A stretch of DNA of 10,938 nt from a virus: UHGV virus genome UHGV-1796162, one strand, 5' to 3'. The notes beneath the pieces are model-generated. The model was not told the origin of the DNA. It searched no databases and saw nothing but the letters and a program-made list of their open reading frames with translations. Shown here in pieces: positions 98 through 10,416 of the stretch. Each line of letters begins with the position of its first letter. Position 1 is the stretch's first letter. Both the position numbers and the translations under genes were made by a program.

Positions 98-2464
98 TTA
101 ATCGTAAATTGTAGTCCCTTCTGGAACACACTTCACATCAAAGCCTAAGAACTTACTCACTTCGATGGGTGACACTTTATTCCAATCTAAATGAGAAAGC
201 AAGAAGTTTTCTTGTTTTCTTTTTGAGAAGTAGTTTGTCACCTTAATAAACATACGGTCACCAGCTTTCTTAATTTTCTTGTAAAGCTTTGTATCATTAT
301 CAAGACACCTTTTCAAATCTTGCAACACACTAATAGTGTAAGTGTATGCAAATTGTGCAGCAACGTATTGGATTTTACCGAACATTGCCTCAACAGCATC
401 TTCATTACCTTCTAGGAAGATAGTTTTGTTTGTGTCCTGTGAATAGCAATAACCATCAGAAATCTTCCTGTTATTGAACGTAAAGTTTCTGGTAATAATC
501 CAACAGCTTGTAAGGTTAAGGACACCACGCATACAGATGCGTGTCATATACCTGTTATGATTAATCCAATGAACATCAGTTAAGCTGTCGTTCAAGAGCT
601 TCTCATCTACTTCAATCCAGTCTTCTGGTATCTTTTTCCAATTTGCTTTTCGGAAAACATAGACTGTCTTCCCTATAACATTAGCAACTGACTTAGCTAC
701 ATCTTCTGGAGATGAGCAAAAACATTCGCCATCAACTGTGTCACCAACTGCCTTGATGTAAAGCTGAGGTTCTTCAATTGTGTCTAAGTCTTCTGACACC
801 TCTGTGTATGAGGCTACACCTTCTGCTGGAACAGCTTTCCAGAGTTTTACAACACCTCTTACAGCTTCTTTACGCTGATAGTGATGTTCCTTATCAGACA
901 TTTTCACAATCTTTAACAAGCTTTTATCAAGTTTGTGTAGATTGATTAAGTCATCTAGCTCTTTTTCAGTCGAGAATACAAAGACAATACCATTGTATCT
1001 GTGAAACAGACTAGACTCACTGGCATAGTCTCGACATGCACCACGCAAGATTTGATTGCGTCCTACAGTCTTCTCAGTACCGTTTTTATTACGACGGTCA
1101 TTTATAACAAACAAAAACTGTTCAATTTGGCTTTTACGCATTGCACCAAAGATATTGAACATACTTGCCTCTTGAGTGTAGGAAAGCGATGTTGCACGAA
1201 TCTTACTCTCTAAAGAGTTGAACTTGACATAAGCAACTGGGTCATAAAGATAATCTACTTTAGGGATATTGTTCCCGTTCCTATCAACCTTAATATTACC
1301 TTTGCCGTCACGTTCATAAATGACTGAGCCGTCTTCTGCGTAGATAATTCCACGACGAATGTTTAGTAATTCTTCTTCCAGAGATTCAAGCTTAACACCA
1401 CCCCACTCTAGCTTTGGACACACAACATTAAACATCTCTCGTGAGTTCAAGCGTAACTCAGCATAAGCCTGTGCAGCATCCATGAGTGTAGGTTGACTAT
1501 TAACTTTCTTGATAACATCCTTTGTAATTGCTTCAGTTATCTTTTTAGTAGCCTCGATGATAACATTTTTTGTCGTGTCATTCATCTGCAATGCTTCACG
1601 AGAAGCTGCAATAGCAACTGAACCAATAGGCATGTAGATGTTTACAAGGTCTATGCTCCTGCGGAAAAATTCTGGTAATACTTTGAAGAAATCATCACCA
1701 AGTAATGCCTCCATATTAACTGGGTAGGCAATATTACCCATAACCACGTTAAACTCTGTTCTATTGCTGCTTGAACGCCAGCTATGCTTATGAGTCATGG
1801 CATCATAGACACCTTCTTCACGAGCAATCACATCCATATCTGCTAATATATCATTATACTCCACATTGCTCTCTGGTTTTACAGCAAAGTATGAGTATAC
1901 ATTACCAGCCTCTTCAAAGAACTTTGAAATACGGTGGTCAGCAACTGCCACACGTACAGCTAAACCATTAGGTTCTTTTGTTGGGTTAGTGGTCAGTTTA
2001 GTTACTTGAGGTATACCATTCTCAAGATAAACAGAGTACTTATTAACAACACCGTCAACATAGCTAGACACTGTGAATGACTGAGCAATTGCAAATGGTG
2101 ATTTTGAGCCGATACCCATTGCGCCAATGTAGTCATTAGAGTCATTCTTCGTAGAAGCCCCATAGTTTAGGTACAAACTCATAACTTTATCATGAGTCAA
2201 CCCAGTTCCAAAATCACGAACTTCAAAGTAAGGTTCAAAACGAGTAGGTAAATGCACATGGAATGGAATATTCTCTTTTCCAGCTTCTTTCTGAGCATCT
2301 ACTGCGTTACATGACAGTTCACGAATCACTGCCCTTTCTTTAAAGGTATATACACCAGAACTCAAAAGGCTGAACATTTCAGGTGTCATTGTAATCTGTG
2401 CTTGAGACGTCTCTAAAGAAGTTGAACTCTTAATCACTTCTGCGTGGTCGTTTACCATGCGCAT
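98..2464 (-). CDS. rIIA: rIIA-like protein (membrane-integrity / rII exclusion protein with N-terminal GHKL/HATPase-like domain), 788 aa
   Basis: ORF track 98..2464. N-terminal region FKERAVIRELSCNAVDA resembles the conserved Bergerat-fold motif of T4 rIIA (recalled as ...KIRAVVRELITNMIDA...), and the ~790-aa size is similar to T4 rIIA (725 aa). ATG at 2462..2464 preceded by AAGAGGAAAGTATT. Match is from memory of the T4 sequence. Confidence 0.75.
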   Translation of the reverse strand: MRMVNDHAEVIKSSTSLETSQAQITMTPEMFSLLSSGVYTFKERAVIRELSCNAVDAQKEAGKENIPFHVHLPTRFEPYFEVRDFGTGLTHDKVMSLYLNYGASTKNDSNDYIGAMGIGSKSPFAIAQSFTVSSYVDGVVNKYSVYLENGIPQVTKLTTNPTKEPNGLAVRVAVADHRISKFFEEAGNVYSYFAVKPESNVEYNDILADMDVIAREEGVYDAMTHKHSWRSSSNRTEFNVVMGNIAYPVNMEALLGDDFFKVLPEFFRRSIDLVNIYMPIGSVAIAASREALQMNDTTKNVIIEATKKITEAITKDVIKKVNSQPTLMDAAQAYAELRLNSREMFNVVCPKLEWGGVKLESLEEELLNIRRGIIYAEDGSVIYERDGKGNIKVDRNGNNIPKVDYLYDPVAYVKFNSLESKIRATSLSYTQEASMFNIFGAMRKSQIEQFLFVINDRRNKNGTEKTVGRNQILRGACRDYASESSLFHRYNGIVFVFSTEKELDDLINLHKLDKSLLKIVKMSDKEHHYQRKEAVRGVVKLWKAVPAEGVASYTEVSEDLDTIEEPQLYIKAVGDTVDGECFCSSPEDVAKSVANVIGKTVYVFRKANWKKIPEDWIEVDEKLLNDSLTDVHWINHNRYMTRICMRGVLNLTSCWIITRNFTFNNRKISDGYCYSQDTNKTIFLEGNEDAVEAMFGKIQYVAAQFAYTYTISVLQDLKRCLDNDTKLYKKIKKAGDRMFIKVTNYFSKRKQENFLLSHLDWNKVSPIEVSKFLGFDVKCVPEGTTIYD

Positions 2465-3000: not shown

Positions 3001-3025
3001 ATTAAAAAGGCTCCCGTAGGAGCCT
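3001..3025 (-). terminator. Rho-independent terminator downstream of the Nampt-like gene
   Basis: On the minus strand: stem GGCTCC-TACG-GGAGCC (plus 3009..3024) followed by TTTTTAATTT. Lies between the Nampt stop (3040) and the ORF111 start (2986). Confidence 0.6.
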
Positions 3026-3039
3026 CTTATCATATACTT

Positions 3040-4821
3040 TTAAAGCTGCTTGTCAATATTATTTCGAATATCACCAAGAGATGTGTAACCGTACTGCTCA
3101 GAGTCACTAAAGACTAAACGTAAAGCACAAGCTGGGTGGTCAAGTGCATCTGCAAAGCTCTGGAATCCATAGCCATCTACAGCTTTCAACTTATCACCAT
3201 CCCACATAGGTGCTACACCACCAAAAGCAGACTTCTTAACACCACTATCTGTTTTAGGGTCTTTTGCAAGCATAATCTCTTTACCACCAATGCTTGCAAG
3301 AGTTGCTTTAACAGCAAATGCAAAGGTGTCACGAGTCATGTACTGGTAAGTGTAAGAGCCTACGCCAAACACTACGTTAGAGCTTGCAAAACCCATTTCA
3401 TACAGACGCTTCAGGATTTCGTTTGCACGTTCCAGCGTGATAGAGTCACCATAGATAAGGCCGATATGCTCATCCAGTACCTTAAACCCTTTAGAGTTAA
3501 TAGTTCCCCCAAAGATGTTATACAGTGTCTTGATAGCTCCATCAATCTCCGCTACAGGACGTGTTACAACGTTTGCAGAACCAACCATATAAGCATTTTT
3601 CAACAGCACTGTATCAGCAACTTCAAAGTCTTCTCTGTCAACAACCATTTCGTAGCCTTCTGACAGTAGCCATCCAGCAATACCATAATTGATGTTTTCA
3701 AGCTTCATGTTCAGGACAGAGTTCAGCATTGTGTCACTTGCCTCTAGCTTGCTTAGGTGCTCGTAATAAGCCTTCTTAGCACACTCTAAGTGAATTGCTT
3801 TATAACCTGTGACAATATGTACAGGGTCTCCAGAGTCAGGGCGAATTACCAGTTTGCCATCACGTTCCATAATTTCTTTACGGAGTGCTGGTAAGATTTC
3901 TGACACAGTTCTCCAGAAGTTGTAAGTATCTGAAACAATACTTGCAATACCAGTTGGGTAAGTTTCTGTTAAGAAACGACGGAAGGTTTGTAACTCACCT
4001 TTAAAGCGTCTTTCTTCTTCAATCAGTTCATTACCACCTTCCCAAGCAATGTTTGCACACATTACAGAGTGTTCAGTGGCTGGTACAGAGCTACCAATAT
4101 CAGAAATTGGGTAAGACTGTCCATAGATGCGTTTAGCCGTGTATACAGCAGGAAAACTGTCAGTTCCTTTAAAGCTGGTTAAGTGACCTACAGCGTTAAA
4201 TGCGTCATCAGTAAAGCCGGACATACCACGCATAGCAAAGTCATGACACTGATAAGGTAAATGTAAGTCGTTGTCACAAGTAAGGTCAGCCCACTTCTTA
4301 CAGATGCGTTTATAGTGCAATGCAATAGTTGCAATGGTACAAGCTTTCCAAATCTCAGCAGAGAAAGCATCTTCCAGATACCCTGCTACCCAATGGAAAC
4401 CTGAAACAGTGTTCTGGAAGACAATCATTGGGACACGCATTGGAACAACTGTGCCTTCTTCTACAGCGTATACTTCGACTGGCAGATAACCTAAGTCGTG
4501 AAGTGCTTCCCAATGCTCTCGACCAATAGCATCTTTGCCCAGAACACCGTTCATGACTTCTAAGATTTCGTCAATTGCTTCTTTTTTGTCACGTTCAAAG
4601 AAAGTGGCGTTCCAATGGTCTATCAAGTAATCTTTAACAAAACGTTGAATACCAAAAGCCACTACACCGTCAATTGCCAAAGGGCTGTTAAACCATTTGT
4701 CACTACGTGGTGTCAGGTTCAACATAAGATATTGCGTAGCATCTGGATACTGATATATATGTGATGCCTTGTAAGCATCTGCGTTTAAACCTGCTGGCAC
4801 TGCATAAAGTGATTTAGTCAT
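3040..4821 (-). CDS. nadV: Nicotinamide phosphoribosyltransferase family protein (Nampt/NadV-like; alternatively a nicotinamide ADP-ribose transferase of the phage NAD+ reconstitution pathway), 593 aa from the ATG
   Basis: The track ORF starts at TTG (4839); I place the start at ATG 4819..4821 (MTKSLYAVPAGL...) preceded by TGAGAGAGATTAAAAAG. Family motifs recalled from human NAMPT: NADAYKASHIYQYP (vs ATDSYKVTHYKQYP), LVIRPDSGDP (vs LIIRPDSGNP), INSKGFKVLDEHIGLIYGDS (vs [20 protein letters not shown]). It is ~100 aa longer than canonical Nampt. Confidence 0.85.
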   Translation of the reverse strand: MTKSLYAVPAGLNADAYKASHIYQYPDATQYLMLNLTPRSDKWFNSPLAIDGVVAFGIQRFVKDYLIDHWNATFFERDKKEAIDEILEVMNGVLGKDAIGREHWEALHDLGYLPVEVYAVEEGTVVPMRVPMIVFQNTVSGFHWVAGYLEDAFSAEIWKACTIATIALHYKRICKKWADLTCDNDLHLPYQCHDFAMRGMSGFTDDAFNAVGHLTSFKGTDSFPAVYTAKRIYGQSYPISDIGSSVPATEHSVMCANIAWEGGNELIEEERRFKGELQTFRRFLTETYPTGIASIVSDTYNFWRTVSEILPALRKEIMERDGKLVIRPDSGDPVHIVTGYKAIHLECAKKAYYEHLSKLEASDTMLNSVLNMKLENINYGIAGWLLSEGYEMVVDREDFEVADTVLLKNAYMVGSANVVTRPVAEIDGAIKTLYNIFGGTINSKGFKVLDEHIGLIYGDSITLERANEILKRLYEMGFASSNVVFGVGSYTYQYMTRDTFAFAVKATLASIGGKEIMLAKDPKTDSGVKKSAFGGVAPMWDGDKLKAVDGYGFQSFADALDHPACALRLVFSDSEQYGYTSLGDIRNNIDKQL

Positions 4822-4842
4822 CTTTTTAATCTCTCTCAAAAT

Positions 4843-4858
4843 GGGGCTTAAAAGCCCC
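4843..4858 (-). other. GC-rich stem-loop (GGGGCT-TAAA-AGCCCC) between the Prs-like and Nampt-like genes
   Basis: 6-7-bp perfect stem read directly. On the minus strand it is followed by ATTTTGAGAGAG, i.e. only a short U-run, so it is a possible partial terminator or processing/stability hairpin. The stem sequence is nearly identical to the hairpin at 68..87. Confidence 0.45.
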
Positions 4859-4868
4859 CTATAAAGTT

Positions 4869-5750
4869 TTAATCAAGGTTTGCTACAGTAACTTGACCAT
4901 AATGTGTTAAGCCACGGTCTTTAGCTTCCCCTAAAGAGTTTGTAGTGTAAATGTGGTCAATACCATTGTCAAGTAAGTTTTCAACACCTTTAGAGAAAAT
5001 ACCATGAGTTACATAAAGTTCCACACGTTTTGCACCTGCTTCACGAAGATGTTTTGCTGCTTCTACGAAGGTTCGACCACCATCACAGATATCATCAAGA
5101 ATCATGACGGTTTTATCGGTCAAATCAACATCATCAAGGATTCGCATACCAGTAATTTCACCAGTCTTAAGGTTACGCACTTTAGACATTATGATATATG
5201 GTTTATCCACCTCTTTAGCGGCATCTTTAGTCTTCTTAGCTGCACCTGCATCTGGGGCTACTAAGAAATCAATGCGCGGGTCACTTGCAAAGTGTACTGC
5301 AATTTCCTTTTGAGGAATACTCTGGAAGCAGTTAAATAGGTTATCTGGTACATAACTGTGAGGGTCAACTGCACAGACTGCACCAAATCCCATTGCATTC
5401 ACCTGCTTAGCAAAAACCTTTAAAGCTGCTGCATCACCTTTAAACATGTGACGGTCATATCGTGCATTTGGTAAGTAGTAAAAAATGACAGTCTTTAAGG
5501 CATATTCATGAGGAACTAAATCATCAATTGCTTCTTTAGCAAGTGCCACAGCAAACAATGTGTCTTTATCATAACCTTTTACAATCATAATCACATTGTT
5601 GATGGATGATGCTGCGTGAGCAGTAAAGTCAACAAGCTCTTGTGAAAAGTGTCCACCAATCTCACCAGAAGGGAACTGGATGAGGTTAAACTCTTCTTCA
5701 TGAGACCCTTTTGTCGGTGAATGAATTATAACACGGATAGATGTTTTCAT
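4869..5750 (-). CDS. prs: Ribose-phosphate pyrophosphokinase (PRPP synthetase, Prs) family protein; alternatively an ADP-ribose pyrophosphokinase, 293 aa from the ATG
   Basis: The track ORF starts at TTG; I place the start at ATG 5748..5750 (MKTSIRVIIHSP...) preceded by TGAGAGTAAAACT. Type I PRTase ribose-phosphate binding loop VMILDDICDGGRTF (cf. Prs ...DD.IDTGGT) and a DPHS segment resembling the Prs DLHA region. Size matches Prs (~300 aa). Confidence 0.8.
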   Translation of the reverse strand: MKTSIRVIIHSPTKGSHEEEFNLIQFPSGEIGGHFSQELVDFTAHAASSINNVIMIVKGYDKDTLFAVALAKEAIDDLVPHEYALKTVIFYYLPNARYDRHMFKGDAAALKVFAKQVNAMGFGAVCAVDPHSYVPDNLFNCFQSIPQKEIAVHFASDPRIDFLVAPDAGAAKKTKDAAKEVDKPYIIMSKVRNLKTGEITGMRILDDVDLTDKTVMILDDICDGGRTFVEAAKHLREAGAKRVELYVTHGIFSKGVENLLDNGIDHIYTTNSLGEAKDRGLTHYGQVTVANLD

Positions 5751-5760
5751 AGTTTTACTC

Positions 5761-6039
5761 TCAATCAAAAGTTACGAATGTCACAGCCATAGCTGTTTTG
5801 CATTTTTGTGGATTCACAATGTGATAGATTACTGAACAGTTACCTGTGCTATCTGGTACTGGTTTTGTCCAAGTGCGTTCAACATTTGGTTCACCTAGTT
5901 CTTTGTAGAATCCGTTTGTGTGACGGTCAATCATCTCAAGAGCTAATGGGTCTGGTATATGGCCACGAATCATATACATCTCACAACCATTTCCAGCATC
6001 ACTTATTAGGTCTTTTATTTCCCAATCTGCTTTAGCCAT
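5761..6039 (-). CDS. Hypothetical protein, 92 aa
   Basis: ORF track 5761..6039. Its ATG (6037..6039) overlaps the stop of ORF171, and its TGA stop is embedded in the RBS-like TGAGAGT of the Prs-like gene, so it looks translationally coupled within the operon. No motif recognised. Confidence 0.55.
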   Translation of the reverse strand: MAKADWEIKDLISDAGNGCEMYMIRGHIPDPLALEMIDRHTNGFYKELGEPNVERTWTKPVPDSTGNCSVIYHIVNPQKCKTAMAVTFVTFD

Positions 6040-6547
6040 TGTAAGTTGCCCTATAAACTGTCTCGAACTTCAACAGGAGAGATATTGCCAAATCTGTATA
6101 GCTGTTGTCAAGCACATCTGGCATATTGTTTTTGATATATTTCTCTTGCTCTTCATAGGTCATCTTAGAGGTGCTTAAAAGTCTATCTCCTTGCTTCTGA
6201 TTATCAGCTTTAGTCTGGATAAACCAGTTTGCACAGTGATGTTCACCACCTTTTGTAACAGGCTTGTGGTGGCCTAATGTGAAGGACTGGTTACCTGTGT
6301 ATCTGCAAAGCTTATTGAGTACTGTAATGGTGTTCTTCACAACAAAACATTCATACAGGTTATCTATGGTGTAATGTGGGTAATAGTGGAATAGTGCTCT
6401 TTCACGAGTACTATCACGATTCCAGAGAATCATGTGATTAGAGTTAGAAGGGTCATATTGGTGGGAGTCAATGAACTCTTGACGTTCCTCAAAGCTGAGC
6501 CTTAACACTGACATTGCAGCCGAACGTTTCAGGTTTGACAGGTACAT
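6032..6547 (-). CDS. Hypothetical protein, 171 aa (His-rich segment LGHHKPVTKGGEHHCANWF)
   Basis: ORF track 6032..6547. ATG at 6545..6547 preceded by GGAGATAAT, directly after the terminator hairpin at 6566..6586. It is the first gene of the apparent operon ending with the Nampt-like gene. Confidence 0.6.
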   Translation of the reverse strand: MYLSNLKRSAAMSVLRLSFEERQEFIDSHQYDPSNSNHMILWNRDSTRERALFHYYPHYTIDNLYECFVVKNTITVLNKLCRYTGNQSFTLGHHKPVTKGGEHHCANWFIQTKADNQKQGDRLLSTSKMTYEEQEKYIKNNMPDVLDNSYTDLAISLLLKFETVYRATYNG

Positions 6548-6554
6548 ATTATCT

Positions 6555-6586
6555 CCAAAATAAAAAGGGAACCTTTACAGTTCCCT
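6555..6586 (-). terminator. Rho-independent terminator
   Basis: On the minus strand: GGGAAC-TGTAAAG-GTTCCC followed by TTTTTATTTTGG. Lies between the ORF103 stop and the ORF171 start. Confidence 0.6.
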
Positions 6587-6598
6587 AATCATAGACTC

Positions 6599-6910
6599 TT
6601 ACTGAACTAATTTCAATACTTTGAAGAAACCTTCTTCACCAATTGCATCATAGACCTTTTCAGTTGGCTTGATAAGGTTGTTCAAGCAGATTATTTTCTT
6701 ACGTTTCTTATCATAAGAAAGTTTAAGCTGCTTCAGCTCTTTATCATCTTCAGGGTGCTCATTGTACATCTTTACAGCCTCTTTGAAGCTAATGTAACCG
6801 CCGCCAAGAGTAAGGAAACCTGTGCCACAATAATGTGAATTGTGCTTATCAGCCATAAACTGACACAGAATAGAAATCTGAATTTTACGGGTGTTATAAA
6901 TCTTTTCCAT
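6599..6910 (-). CDS. Hypothetical protein, 103 aa
   Basis: ORF track 6599..6910. ATG at 6908..6910 preceded by GTAAGGATAACCAAA (RBS AAGGA). No motif recognised. Confidence 0.6.
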   Translation of the reverse strand: MEKIYNTRKIQISILCQFMADKHNSHYCGTGFLTLGGGYISFKEAVKMYNEHPEDDKELKQLKLSYDKKRKKIICLNNLIKPTEKVYDAIGEEGFFKVLKLVQ

Positions 6911-7194: not shown

Positions 7195-7473
7195 TTAAAG
7201 TTTAATACAGAACTGGTCTAGTTCTTCTTTTTCAATACCAACTTGAACATCTCCGTATGCTACGTCAGTGAAAAATGTCTGTCCATCATTAAATGCGCTT
7301 TCTGAATCAACGTGGAAAGTAACACGTTTAACAATCTCTGCTAGAGCTACTAACCCACTTTTCCCAAACTTCTCATGGGTCTTTACCATCCACTCATCAA
7401 GTGAGTTAATATTATAAGTCCACTTACCGGAGTAGCTACTCTGCTCTCCACTGACAGTCGCCTTGCCACCCAT
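7195..7473 (-). CDS. Hypothetical protein (about 92 aa if it starts at ATG 7471..7473; 64 aa if at ATG 7387..7389)
   Basis: Track ORF is 7195..7554. The internal ATG at 7471..7473 has a GGAGAAAAGAAT RBS but overlaps the nrdG 3' end by 38 nt in another frame. The ATG at 7387..7389 avoids the overlap but has a poorer RBS. Start is uncertain. Confidence 0.45.
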   Translation of the reverse strand: MGGKATVSGEQSSYSGKWTYNINSLDEWMVKTHEKFGKSGLVALAEIVKRVTFHVDSESAFNDGQTFFTDVAYGDVQVGIEKEELDQFCIKL

Positions 7474-7921
7474 ATTCTTTTCTCCACAAGTTTTGGTTGT
7501 CTGAACCACGATACGGTTTAACTGTTGGTTTAGATGAATCATACTTACCATCAATCACCACGTCAACATATTTCATCACATCTAAGTGAATCTTTTCGTG
7601 TAGTTGAAAACCTGTCCAGAGCCAGATAGACTTCTCTGGATAAACAGTTTTAATACGTTTGCATATGTTGGTAACCTCTTGAATATTTCTATCATCCAGA
7701 GGCTCTCCACCAAGTATCGACAACCCACTGATGGCCTCATCAGCCATTAACTTAATGATGCCGTAGAGGTTTGCATAAGTAAATACTTTACCAGCATTAA
7801 ACTTCCAAGACTCCCTGTTAAAGCATCCTTCACAGTGATGCTTACAACCAGCTACGAAGAGGCTTACACGAACCCCTTCACCATTAGCTGTGTCAAATGG
7901 TCGAATCTCCATGTAATTCAT
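7436..7921 (-). CDS. nrdG: Anaerobic ribonucleoside-triphosphate reductase activating protein (radical-SAM activase NrdG), 161 aa
   Basis: ORF track 7436..7921. Radical-SAM cluster motif CKHHCEGC (Cx3Cx2C) near the N-terminus. Overall resemblance to T4 NrdG as recalled (VSGC.H.C.GC..., ...VDGK...RGSSNQ...). ATG preceded by GGTGAGGTAACTAG. Confidence 0.85.
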   Translation of the reverse strand: MNYMEIRPFDTANGEGVRVSLFVAGCKHHCEGCFNRESWKFNAGKVFTYANLYGIIKLMADEAISGLSILGGEPLDDRNIQEVTNICKRIKTVYPEKSIWLWTGFQLHEKIHLDVMKYVDVVIDGKYDSSKPTVKPYRGSDNQNLWRKEYGWQGDCQWRAE

Positions 7922-8726: not shown

Positions 8727-9674
8727 TTACATAGAAATCCTATCCTTAATTTCTGCCATCTTAGCGTCATTCATTCGAGACTGGCCTTTAATTTTCGTGA
8801 ATGACAAGTACCCACACACCCTGTTAATCACAGAGATATCATGTGAATGGCAAACCTCACATTCTTCAACATCAGCCTTTGGTCTGTTACCACAATGTTC
8901 ACAGATTGCTAAGTCAAAGTTAAGTCCCTGATAGAAACCTTTCAACATACCTCTCGTAATACAACTTTTAAGTGCTGGCAAGTTTTCTGGGTTAGCTACC
9001 CTTACATACTGGATTCTACCACCTCTACAGATATGGAAGAAGGGTTCTTCTAAGTCCTGCTTCTCAAATGGTGTAATGTCTGCTGCAACATTCATATGGA
9101 AACTGTTTGTAAAGTATTCCTTATCAGAAACACCTTTGATAACACCAAACATGTCTCTGAACTGTTTTAACTGAGTTCCACAAAGTGATTCTGCTGGAGT
9201 ACCATAGACAGCATATAAGAATCCATCTTCATTTTTAAACTCTTCAGTTTTCATGTTAATGTATGCCAGAACATCGTATGTAAAACTACAGCTTCCAACT
9301 TCATGAAGCCGTTTACCTTCAGCAAGAACAGATAGCTCATCAAGCGCAGTAACCCCAAAAGAAGCTGTGAAGGACTTCACAATATCCCAACCAACCCTGT
9401 CAGTAGGATTCTTAGTTCCTTTATACAGACCACCTTGTGTAAATGCAAGAGGGTTAGAACTTGCTGGCATATTAGCAATCATTTCGTAGCGTTTCTTGTG
9501 GAAGCTGCGAATTATTTCTAGGTACTTATCAAGCTCTTTCCAGAAATCTAAACCATTCTCTTTAGAATACTGGTAAATCATTGGTAAGTTCAAAGATACA
9601 GCACCAATGTTAGCACGACCTACATAAAACTCTTCACCATATTCGTTATGGTATGGTGATAAAAATGCTCTACA
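8727..9674 (-). CDS. nrdD: Anaerobic ribonucleoside-triphosphate reductase NrdD, exon 2 (C-terminal ~315 aa including the glycyl-radical and zinc-ribbon region)
   Basis: C-terminus carries CEHCGNRP...CEVCHSHD (Zn ribbon) and RVCGYLSF (glycyl-radical motif). The reading frame is open upstream of the track start (9593) to an in-frame TAG at 9696..9698 and contains CRAFLSPY. The exon 2 start at 9674 is inferred from the intron 3' end (...CCTGAACAACAAG|TGT) and from the conserved junction SPMG|CRAFL. Confidence 0.8.
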   Translation of the reverse strand, partial: CRAFLSPYHNEYGEEFYVGRANIGAVSLNLPMIYQYSKENGLDFWKELDKYLEIIRSFHKKRYEMIANMPASSNPLAFTQGGLYKGTKNPTDRVGWDIVKSFTASFGVTALDELSVLAEGKRLHEVGSCSFTYDVLAYINMKTEEFKNEDGFLYAVYGTPAESLCGTQLKQFRDMFGVIKGVSDKEYFTNSFHMNVAADITPFEKQDLEEPFFHICRGGRIQYVRVANPENLPALKSCITRGMLKGFYQGLNFDLAICEHCGNRPKADVEECEVCHSHDISVINRVCGYLSFTKIKGQSRMNDAKMAEIKDRISM

Positions 9675-10416
9675 CTTGTTGTTCAGGTAAGTTCGCTAAG
9701 CTTACCCCGCTTTATTCAAGCTGCTTACTGTCGCCAGTAAGTCCAGACTATATCTTCTACTTATTTCTAAGTAGCGTACCATTTCGAGTCGCTTGACCCT
9801 ACACCGCTACATTCATCACGGTTAGTCGTTCGGCATTTAGATGTATTCAAACTCATATTCGAAGTTATTATGCTCTTTTACACCCTTCAATATTGAAGAG
9901 ATGGTCTTGCGATTGTGTCCAAGTATATTGGATAACTCTCGTATTGACTTAGTAACAATAACTTCCTTTGTCACTTTGTGTGTGGCTTTCACGGCATATG
10001 AACGCTTGTGGAACTTGTAACATCCGTTCTCATAACCCTCTTTAGCATTCTCAGAATGAGTACCCCATTCTAAGTTAGATGCGTGGTTATTTAGTTTGTT
10101 ATCGTCCTTATGTTTTACAATTGGAAGATTATTCGGGTTAGGTACATATTTCTCAGCAACTAACCTGTGGACATACATGTCACGATTCTTCTTACCGTAA
10201 AACCTCACTTTCATATACCCAGTGTTGGATTTCCACTGCGTAAGCTCTACACCATTTTCCCTAAAGACTTTTCCATCTTCAGTGACGTGATAGTTTGGCA
10301 TGTAAGACTCCTATGTTGTATAGTTTCTTACATCGTACATCATTTAGCACAGGATTGTCTACATCTGTAGAGTTTCCCTGTTTAGGCACGTTTTAGATGA
10401 GCTATAGAGCTTGTTA
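9675..10416 (-). mobile_element. Group I self-splicing intron (T4 td/nrdD-like, ~742 nt) interrupting nrdD and carrying a homing-endonuclease ORF
   Basis: Exon 1 ends ...ATGGGT followed by an immediate in-frame TAA (cf. T4 td 5' splice site ...GGGU|UAAUUGAGG). Conserved core-like elements on the minus strand: CCTAAACAGGGAAACTCTACAGATGTAGACAATCCTGTGCTAAAT at the 5' side; GGGTCAAGCGACTCGAAA, AGAAGATATAGTCTGG and GGGGTAAGCTTAGCGAACTTACCTGAACAACAAG at the 3' side. These closely resemble the T4 td intron as I recall it. Exact boundaries are +/- a few nt. Confidence 0.75.
9837..10301 (-). CDS. HNH family homing endonuclease (intron-encoded), 154 aa
   Basis: ORF track 9837..10301. HNH-type motif YVHRLVAEKYVPNPNNLPIVKHKDDNKLNNHASNLEWGTHSEN and a C-terminal helix-turn-helix-like IRELSNILGHNRKTISSILKG. 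ATG preceded by ATAGGAGTCTTAC. It lies wholly inside the intron. Confidence 0.8.
   Translation of the reverse strand: MPNYHVTEDGKVFRENGVELTQWKSNTGYMKVRFYGKKNRDMYVHRLVAEKYVPNPNNLPIVKHKDDNKLNNHASNLEWGTHSENAKEGYENGCYKFHKRSYAVKATHKVTKEVIVTKSIRELSNILGHNRKTISSILKGVKEHNNFEYEFEYI

Follow-up and report, generated by a model that had tools for sequence, protein, structure and literature searches.

The window analysed here is the whole 10,938-nucleotide stretch of the virus genome UHGV-1796162, in which two adjacent genes encoding a Prs-like and a Nampt-like protein lie on the minus strand, as do all sizeable open reading frames (ORFs) in the ORF listing. This stretch belongs to a Felixounavirus genome. 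The best match of the region in a megablast search was Escherichia phage allfine, with 96–97% nucleotide identity, and 233 of the 260 phage records that matched did so with a query coverage of at least 80%. Nearly all matching records are Felix O1-like phages of Escherichia, Salmonella, Shigella and Citrobacter, and the same gene pair is carried by at least 233 phage records.

The two genes are separated by a 47-nt spacer. The longest ORFs, counted from the first possible TTG starts, span 4869..5768 and 3040..4839 on the minus strand, and a Shine-Dalgarno-like GAGAG motif lies 8–10 nt 5′ of an in-frame ATG in each of them (5750 and 4821). Because the orthologues in the phages Bas63 and allfine are annotated as starting at these same ATGs, 4869..5750 and 3040..4821 are the correct coordinates of the genes. 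Pfam assigns the Prs-like protein to PF00156 (2e-12) and PF14572 (2e-9), of the phosphoribosyl-pyrophosphate synthetase type, and the Nampt-like protein to PF04095 (7e-35) and PF18127 (9e-6), all above the curated cut-offs. An initial annotation of the window, made from the letters alone, had given the same coordinates and families for both genes, without naming a strand.

Two enzymes named Adps and Namat constitute NARP1 (for NAD+ reconstitution pathway 1), a pathway found by deletion of genes 79–80 of the BASEL phage Bas63 (JohannRWettstein), a Felixounavirus (Osterman et al., bioRxiv 10.1101/2024.02.11.579819). The deletion made Bas63 about 20-fold more sensitive to the SIR2-HerA defence and deepened the depletion of NAD+, and ADP-ribose pyrophosphate (ADPR-PP) was seen only when wild-type Bas63 infected defence-carrying cells (10.1101/2024.02.11.579819). 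NARP1 has been reported in 859 phage genomes, which is 4.3% of those surveyed. When compared with the Bas63 reference record (MZ501086), the Prs-like protein of the window is identical to Bas63_0079 at 235 of 293 positions (80%) and the Nampt-like protein to Bas63_0080 at 578 of 593 (97%), in both cases over the full length and without gaps. The window pair is thus orthologous to the prototype enzymes, Adps and Namat respectively. Bas63 and the window also share the genus, the gene order, the protein lengths (293 and 593 aa), the terminator and the stem of the intercistronic hairpin, whereas a small extra ORF that follows namat in Bas63 (0081) is absent from the window and from allfine. The gene pair is thus very probably the Felixounavirus copy of NARP1; NARP1 is already known, and what the window holds is the published system in the genus in which that system was defined.

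By analogy with the described pathway, a host defence of the SIR2, TIR or SEFIR type would split NAD+ into ADP-ribose (ADPR) and nicotinamide (NAM). Adps would then move the β,γ-pyrophosphate from ATP onto the terminal ribose of ADPR to form ADPR-PP, and Namat would combine ADPR-PP with NAM to yield NAD+ directly, without passing through nicotinamide mononucleotide (NMN) and without an NMN adenylyltransferase (NMNAT). Transcription of the pair probably begins at a host-type promoter, takes in two small ORFs upstream of adps and would stop at a strong terminator. For this particular pair of alleles, both the chemistry and the anti-defence role are predicted from orthologues and homologues and from the conservation of motifs.

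The assignment of the Nampt-like protein as Namat is supported at the levels of sequence, fold and individual residues. Its best PDB sequence matches are the crystal structures of SpβL1 Namat, 9w5w and 9w5x (E 1e-128), which are titled 'Crystal structure of Namat' in Foldseek and whose numbering reproduces every residue named in PMC12774641. An AlphaFold2 model built with 47 homologues (predicted local distance difference test score, 93.6; predicted template modelling [TM] score, 0.91) has 9w5x as its best Foldseek match (TM 0.95, target-normalised; E 1e-53), and Haemophilus ducreyi NadV and mammalian NAMPT are lower-ranked fold matches. The NAM/NAD+ contacts of the SpβL1 structure, which map to D15, Y17, F195, R198, D221, A248, R327, D329, G458-D459-S460, G488-S489, Y490, Y494 and T496-R497-D498 of the window protein, are all conserved or conservatively substituted, the substitutions being S190 to A196, A362 to S460 and F392 to Y490. 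The Nampt catalytic core is kept (F189, R192, D215, R306 and D308 of SpβL1 correspond to F195, R198, D221, R327 and D329), and the catalytic histidine is H251, within PATEHSVM.

Two elements of the Namat adenine clamp are also present. The selectivity-clamp helix (SCH), for which the consensus GSXΦXΦXΦTRD is diagnostic of Namat (PMC12774641), is represented by a fitting motif (Table 1). In the selectivity-clamp loop (SCL), the adenine-stacking residue is either an Arg, or a Lys or Tyr followed by a stacking residue, and Bas63 is of the Lys type (PMC12774641); the loop of the window protein, PRSDKWFNSPLAI, is identical to that of Bas63, and its K42-W43 is predicted to form a clamp of the 'Lys then stacking residue' type. 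SpβL1 Namat, which shares the fold, all the NAM/NAD+ contacts and the SCH motif, differs in having R40 at this place in the SCL and is about 38% identical overall; ICP1 Namat is 47% identical to the window protein. Klebsiella, Cronobacter, Phytobacter, Kosakonia and other Enterobacterales have chromosomal homologues of 496 aa (about 47% identity) that are annotated as nicotinate phosphoribosyltransferase. It may be to these that PMC12774641 refers when it mentions bacterial NARP1-like genes.

The Prs-like protein is closer to ICP1 Adps (40% identity over 188 aa, E 7e-35 in a pairwise comparison) than to E. coli Prs (E 2e-12, phmmer). The Adps family is defined by structures and mutants of the ICP1 enzyme (PMC13586617), with which the window protein aligns at the catalytic lysine (K190, corresponding to ICP1 K185) and at the acceptor residues R97, H131, D167, D219, D220 and D223 (ICP1 R87, H121, D161, D212, D213 and D216); the stretch D219-D220-I221-C222-D223-G224 and F228 are conserved as well. 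The phosphoribosyltransferase loop and the DPHS motif noted in the initial annotation were both located, the former as the pyrophosphate (PP) loop region VMILDDICDGGRTF and the latter at aa 129–132. The PP loop reads DDICDGGRT in the window and DDICDGAAS in ICP1 Adps, as against DDMIDTGGT in E. coli Prs and DDIISTGGT in archaeal Prs, although its remodelling as a trait of Adps rests on these two Adps sequences and on a statement in the ICP1 Adps paper.

Both the class I Prs loop, DD[MI]IDT[GA]GT, and the C-terminal regulatory/filament module are missing from the window Adps, and ICP1 Adps likewise has no canonical PRPS C-terminal module. Residue 286 is paired with residue 286 of human PRPS1, a protein of 318 aa, and is followed by 7 residues, compared with 32 in PRPS1. 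By alignment, this C-terminus is consistent with loss of the α11–α12 module of class I PRPS, which is a signature of the Adps family according to PMC13586617; the short archaeal Prs also have no C-terminal module, however, so that this trait is not exclusive to Adps.

Table 1. Features of the NARP1 gene pair and its surroundings in the window (aa positions refer to the encoded protein).
Feature	Position	Strand	Details
adps, predicted ADP-ribose pyrophosphokinase (Prs-like)	4869..5750	-	293 aa; Pfam, orthology to Bas63_0079, ICP1 Adps match
namat, predicted nicotinamide ADP-ribose transferase (Nampt-like)	3040..4821	-	593 aa; Pfam, orthology to Bas63_0080, Namat fold
Adps PP-loop region VMILDDICDGGRTF (aa 215-228)	5067..5108	-	DDICDG common to ICP1 Adps
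Namat SCH motif GSYTYQYMTRD (aa 488-498)	3328..3360	-	Fits GSXΦXΦXΦTRD consensus
Namat SCL PRSDKWFNSPLAI (aa 38-50), with K42-W43	4672..4710	-	Identical to Bas63
Inserted ~85-aa α/β domain in Namat (aa ~340-427)	3541..3804	-	Ounavirinae-specific
Adps-namat intercistronic hairpin GGGGCU-UUUA-AGCCCC, then AUUUUG	4843..4858	-	6-bp G+C stem; -11.4 kcal/mol, z only -1.7
Intrinsic terminator at unit end, right after namat stop	3005..3028	-	10-bp stem and T-run; -16.6 kcal/mol, z -4.8
Upstream terminator (6586..6566) abutted by sigma-70-like promoter (TTGAAA-17-TATGAT, 6616..6588)	6566..6616	-	Consensus match
92-aa ORF directly upstream of adps	5761..6039	-	phrog_4726; no Pfam match
171-aa ORF, HNH-like motif GHHKPVTKGGEHHCANWFIQTKADNQKQGD	6032..6547	-	phrog_3500; weak HNH PHROG match E 1e-4; no Pfam

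Several points weigh against the assignment of the pair to NARP1. Namat enzymes also make NMN from phosphoribosyl pyrophosphate (PRPP) in vitro, and a minor NMN route is therefore possible. The in vitro biochemistry comes from SpβL1, ICP1 and other homologues and from no enzyme of this genus; homologues were used because the Bas63 protein purified poorly. The Namat of Ounavirinae carries an extra domain. Finally, the adenine of ADPR is stacked in ICP1 Adps by F18, from the neighbouring protomer, and by F92, and these residues are aligned with S16 in the window (F16 in Bas63) and with M102 in both phages, although at 31% overall identity the N-terminal domain of ICP1 Adps is barely alignable with the window protein and this part of the alignment is unreliable.

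The N-terminal domain is also where the window Adps mainly departs from Bas63, with 53% identity in aa 1–60 against 96% in aa 181–293. The diverged region comprises about 90 residues (aa 1–90; 5481..5750, minus strand), and its pattern points to variation, allelic or mosaic, within the domain from which ICP1 Adps supplies an adenine-stacking Phe to the neighbouring protomer. Among sequenced relatives, the window type is the more frequent allele and is found in 136 records at 90–95% identity.

Alternatively, the gene pair might be read as a classical salvage route, in which PRPP is made from ribose-5-phosphate by the Prs-like enzyme and is joined to NAM by the Nampt-like enzyme to give NMN, in the manner of NARP2 or of NadV-type enzymes, and NAD+ is completed by host NadR or PncC/NadD or by an unseen phage NMNAT. 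This reading, which accords with the Pfam and GenBank annotations of the genes as Prs and Nampt, is nevertheless very improbable. The rescue of Bas63 from SIR2-HerA requires neither pncC nor nadR of the host, the phage still overcoming the defence in a ΔpncC ΔnadR host, and the SpβL1 homologue of gene 79, supplied with ribose-5-phosphate or ADPR together with ATP, gave no Prs-type product but converted ADPR to ADPR-PP, from which the authors concluded that it is not a Prs (10.1101/2024.02.11.579819). The adenine clamp of the Namat type and the DDICDG loop of Adps, in place of the DTGGT of Prs, point in the same direction. In a published survey, moreover, phage Nampts of the NARP2 clade sit in genomes without Adps. 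Both NARP2 (Nampt/NadV and the NMNAT-Nudix protein NatV of KVP40) and bacterial NadV, such as HdNadV (PDB 9ke8), share the Nampt fold and the nicotinamide chemistry with the window protein, but because the window protein has an adjacent Adps, a clamp of the Namat type and, among the window ORFs, no NMNAT partner, it is not a member of NARP2. NARP3 (PnuC and NadR) was considered separately and rejected on gene content.

Supply of nucleotides is a still less probable function. The Prs-like enzyme would in that case raise PRPP for phage nucleotide synthesis, with any effect on NAD+ being incidental, as might fit the position of the pair beside the ribonucleotide reductase genes nrdD and nrdG and near nrdAB, thymidylate synthase and deoxynucleoside monophosphate (dNMP) kinase genes. 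This synteny with nrd genes is, however, the conserved early-gene order of Ounavirinae, and 97% of Adps-clade genes in the published survey adjoin a Namat gene. The phenotype caused by deleting the orthologues is tied to a defence system (10.1101/2024.02.11.579819); a growth defect on defence-free hosts would favour nucleotide supply, and none is reported for the Bas63 deletion mutant. The preference of the initial annotation for NAD+ reconstitution by Adps and Namat over salvage by Prs and Nampt is thus upheld by the orthology to Bas63 genes 79–80, by the signatures of both enzymes and by the result of the search for an NMNAT in Bas63.

No domain of the NMNAT or nucleotidyltransferase type was found among the ORFs of the window or in the related complete genome of Bas63, from which 20 uncharacterised proteins were scanned, structural-module proteins and very small ORFs being left aside. 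The initial annotation had drawn its argument from the window; the absence it reported stands, and although a window of 10.9 kb is by itself a weak argument, the Bas63 result extends it. The result also agrees with the published genetics of Bas63.

Known extensions of NARP1 comprise the Macro-domain phosphatase Adpp and the RyR-domain glycosidase RyDEP. NARP1-AP (Adps-Adpp-Namat) of Vibrio phage Gary (bioRxiv 10.64898/2026.01.28.702374) and the RyDEP-containing loci (10.64898/2026.05.28.727677) have the core adps and namat genes in common with the window but differ from it in their accessory gene, since Pfam and PHROGs revealed neither a Macro/Adpp nor a RyR/RyDEP gene among the window ORFs flanking the pair. 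Bas63_0095, a protein of 261 aa annotated as 'putative phosphatase', has a Macro domain (PF01661, E 1e-7) and also occurs as allfine_75; the two genes lie outside the window, at 17279–18064 and 1474–2259 of their respective stretches. Bas63_0095 is 27% identical to the Adpp (ADPR-1″-phosphate phosphatase) of phage Gary (pairwise E 1e-13). Because the Macro-domain gene is unlinked in these related Felixounavirus genomes, about 8 kb from NARP1, it would be missed by a survey of operon neighbourhoods. On the basis of this similarity, Bas63_0095 and allfine_75 are possible trans-acting components of a NARP1-AP system.

Namat of the window is longer, at 593 aa, than its counterparts in SpβL1, ICP1 and bacteria (488–496 aa), and the excess consists of an insertion of about 14 aa (aa 259–272) and one of about 85 aa, which starts directly after the RPDSGDP strand. 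The large insertion is present throughout the Ounavirinae, with more than 88% identity in Felixounavirus, 50–56% in Suspvirus and Mooglevirus and about 30% in Kolesnikvirus of Erwinia. It was modelled confidently as a small α/β domain, both in context and alone. No fold relatives of the insert were found in the PDB or BFVD, and the domain is not discussed in the text of the structural paper on Namat (PMC12774641).

As stated in the initial annotation, the genes lie in a terminator-bounded operon, with a hairpin and T-run at 3028..3005 and at 6586..6566, but the unit comprises four ORFs, namely those of 171 and 92 aa, adps and namat. The terminator at 3028..3005 is identical in Bas63 and allfine, and the promoter/terminator element at the other end is conserved in allfine and partly in Bas63. 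Judged by its match to the consensus, the predicted promoter at 6616..6588 is the probable start of the transcription unit. A composite signal, in which the TATGAT -10 element of a sigma-70-like promoter abuts a terminator hairpin and T-run, occurs twice on the minus strand, at 3005..3056 and 6566..6616; each copy is followed by GGAGA and an ATG, and Bas63 and allfine have the same arrangement. The signal resembles a terminator/promoter cassette that recurs between early transcription units. Between adps and namat, a hairpin is found whose stem is kept in Bas63 with a different loop; the terminator scan made no call there, and the hairpin could be a partial terminator or attenuator or an element of RNA stability.

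The 171-aa ORF is located upstream of adps in three Ounavirinae genera, including Mooglevirus, and its counterpart in the Erwinia phage Kolesnikvirus is 44% identical. Since gene order is kept across this entire neighbourhood in the subfamily, the position does not argue for a role of the ORF in the pathway. Between the 92-aa ORF and the one that takes its place in Kolesnikvirus, no similarity could be detected, and the 92-aa ORF is therefore not claimed for a conserved module.

The rest of the window is typical of a Felix O1-type genome, with rIIA (98..2464), nrdG (7436..7921) and an intron-split nrdD. The latter is divided into two exons on the minus strand, with the C-terminal part at 8727..9593 and the N-terminal part from 10414 upward, and it is annotated as a two-piece join in Bas63. 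The intervening sequence (9594..10413, minus strand) has a sub-threshold Rfam match to the group I intron family (RF00028, 33 bits, E 2e-6) and contains an HNH_3 homing endonuclease ORF (9837..10301). At the gathering threshold, Rfam gave no matches in the whole window, and a tRNA scan of the window found none.

A first-stage reading of raw sequence was thus able to recognise a recently described anti-defence pathway in genes for which the GenBank label is still 'ribose-phosphate pyrophosphokinase / nicotinamide phosphoribosyltransferase'. This mis-annotation affects hundreds of Felix O1-like phages, of which many are used in therapy or typing. The window adds nothing biologically new on NARP1 itself, and the leads it offers are the inserted domain of Namat, the diverged N-terminus of Adps and the possible unlinked Adpp, encoded by the Adpp-like Macro gene, which appear to be undescribed details. 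The inserted domain could serve in regulation, bind a partner or alter oligomerisation, and the unlinked Macro protein might extend NARP1 in trans against RES-type defences. It is conceivable, if rather doubtful, that through the Namat insert and a Macro protein acting in trans the NARP1 of Ounavirinae is more elaborate than the two-enzyme systems.

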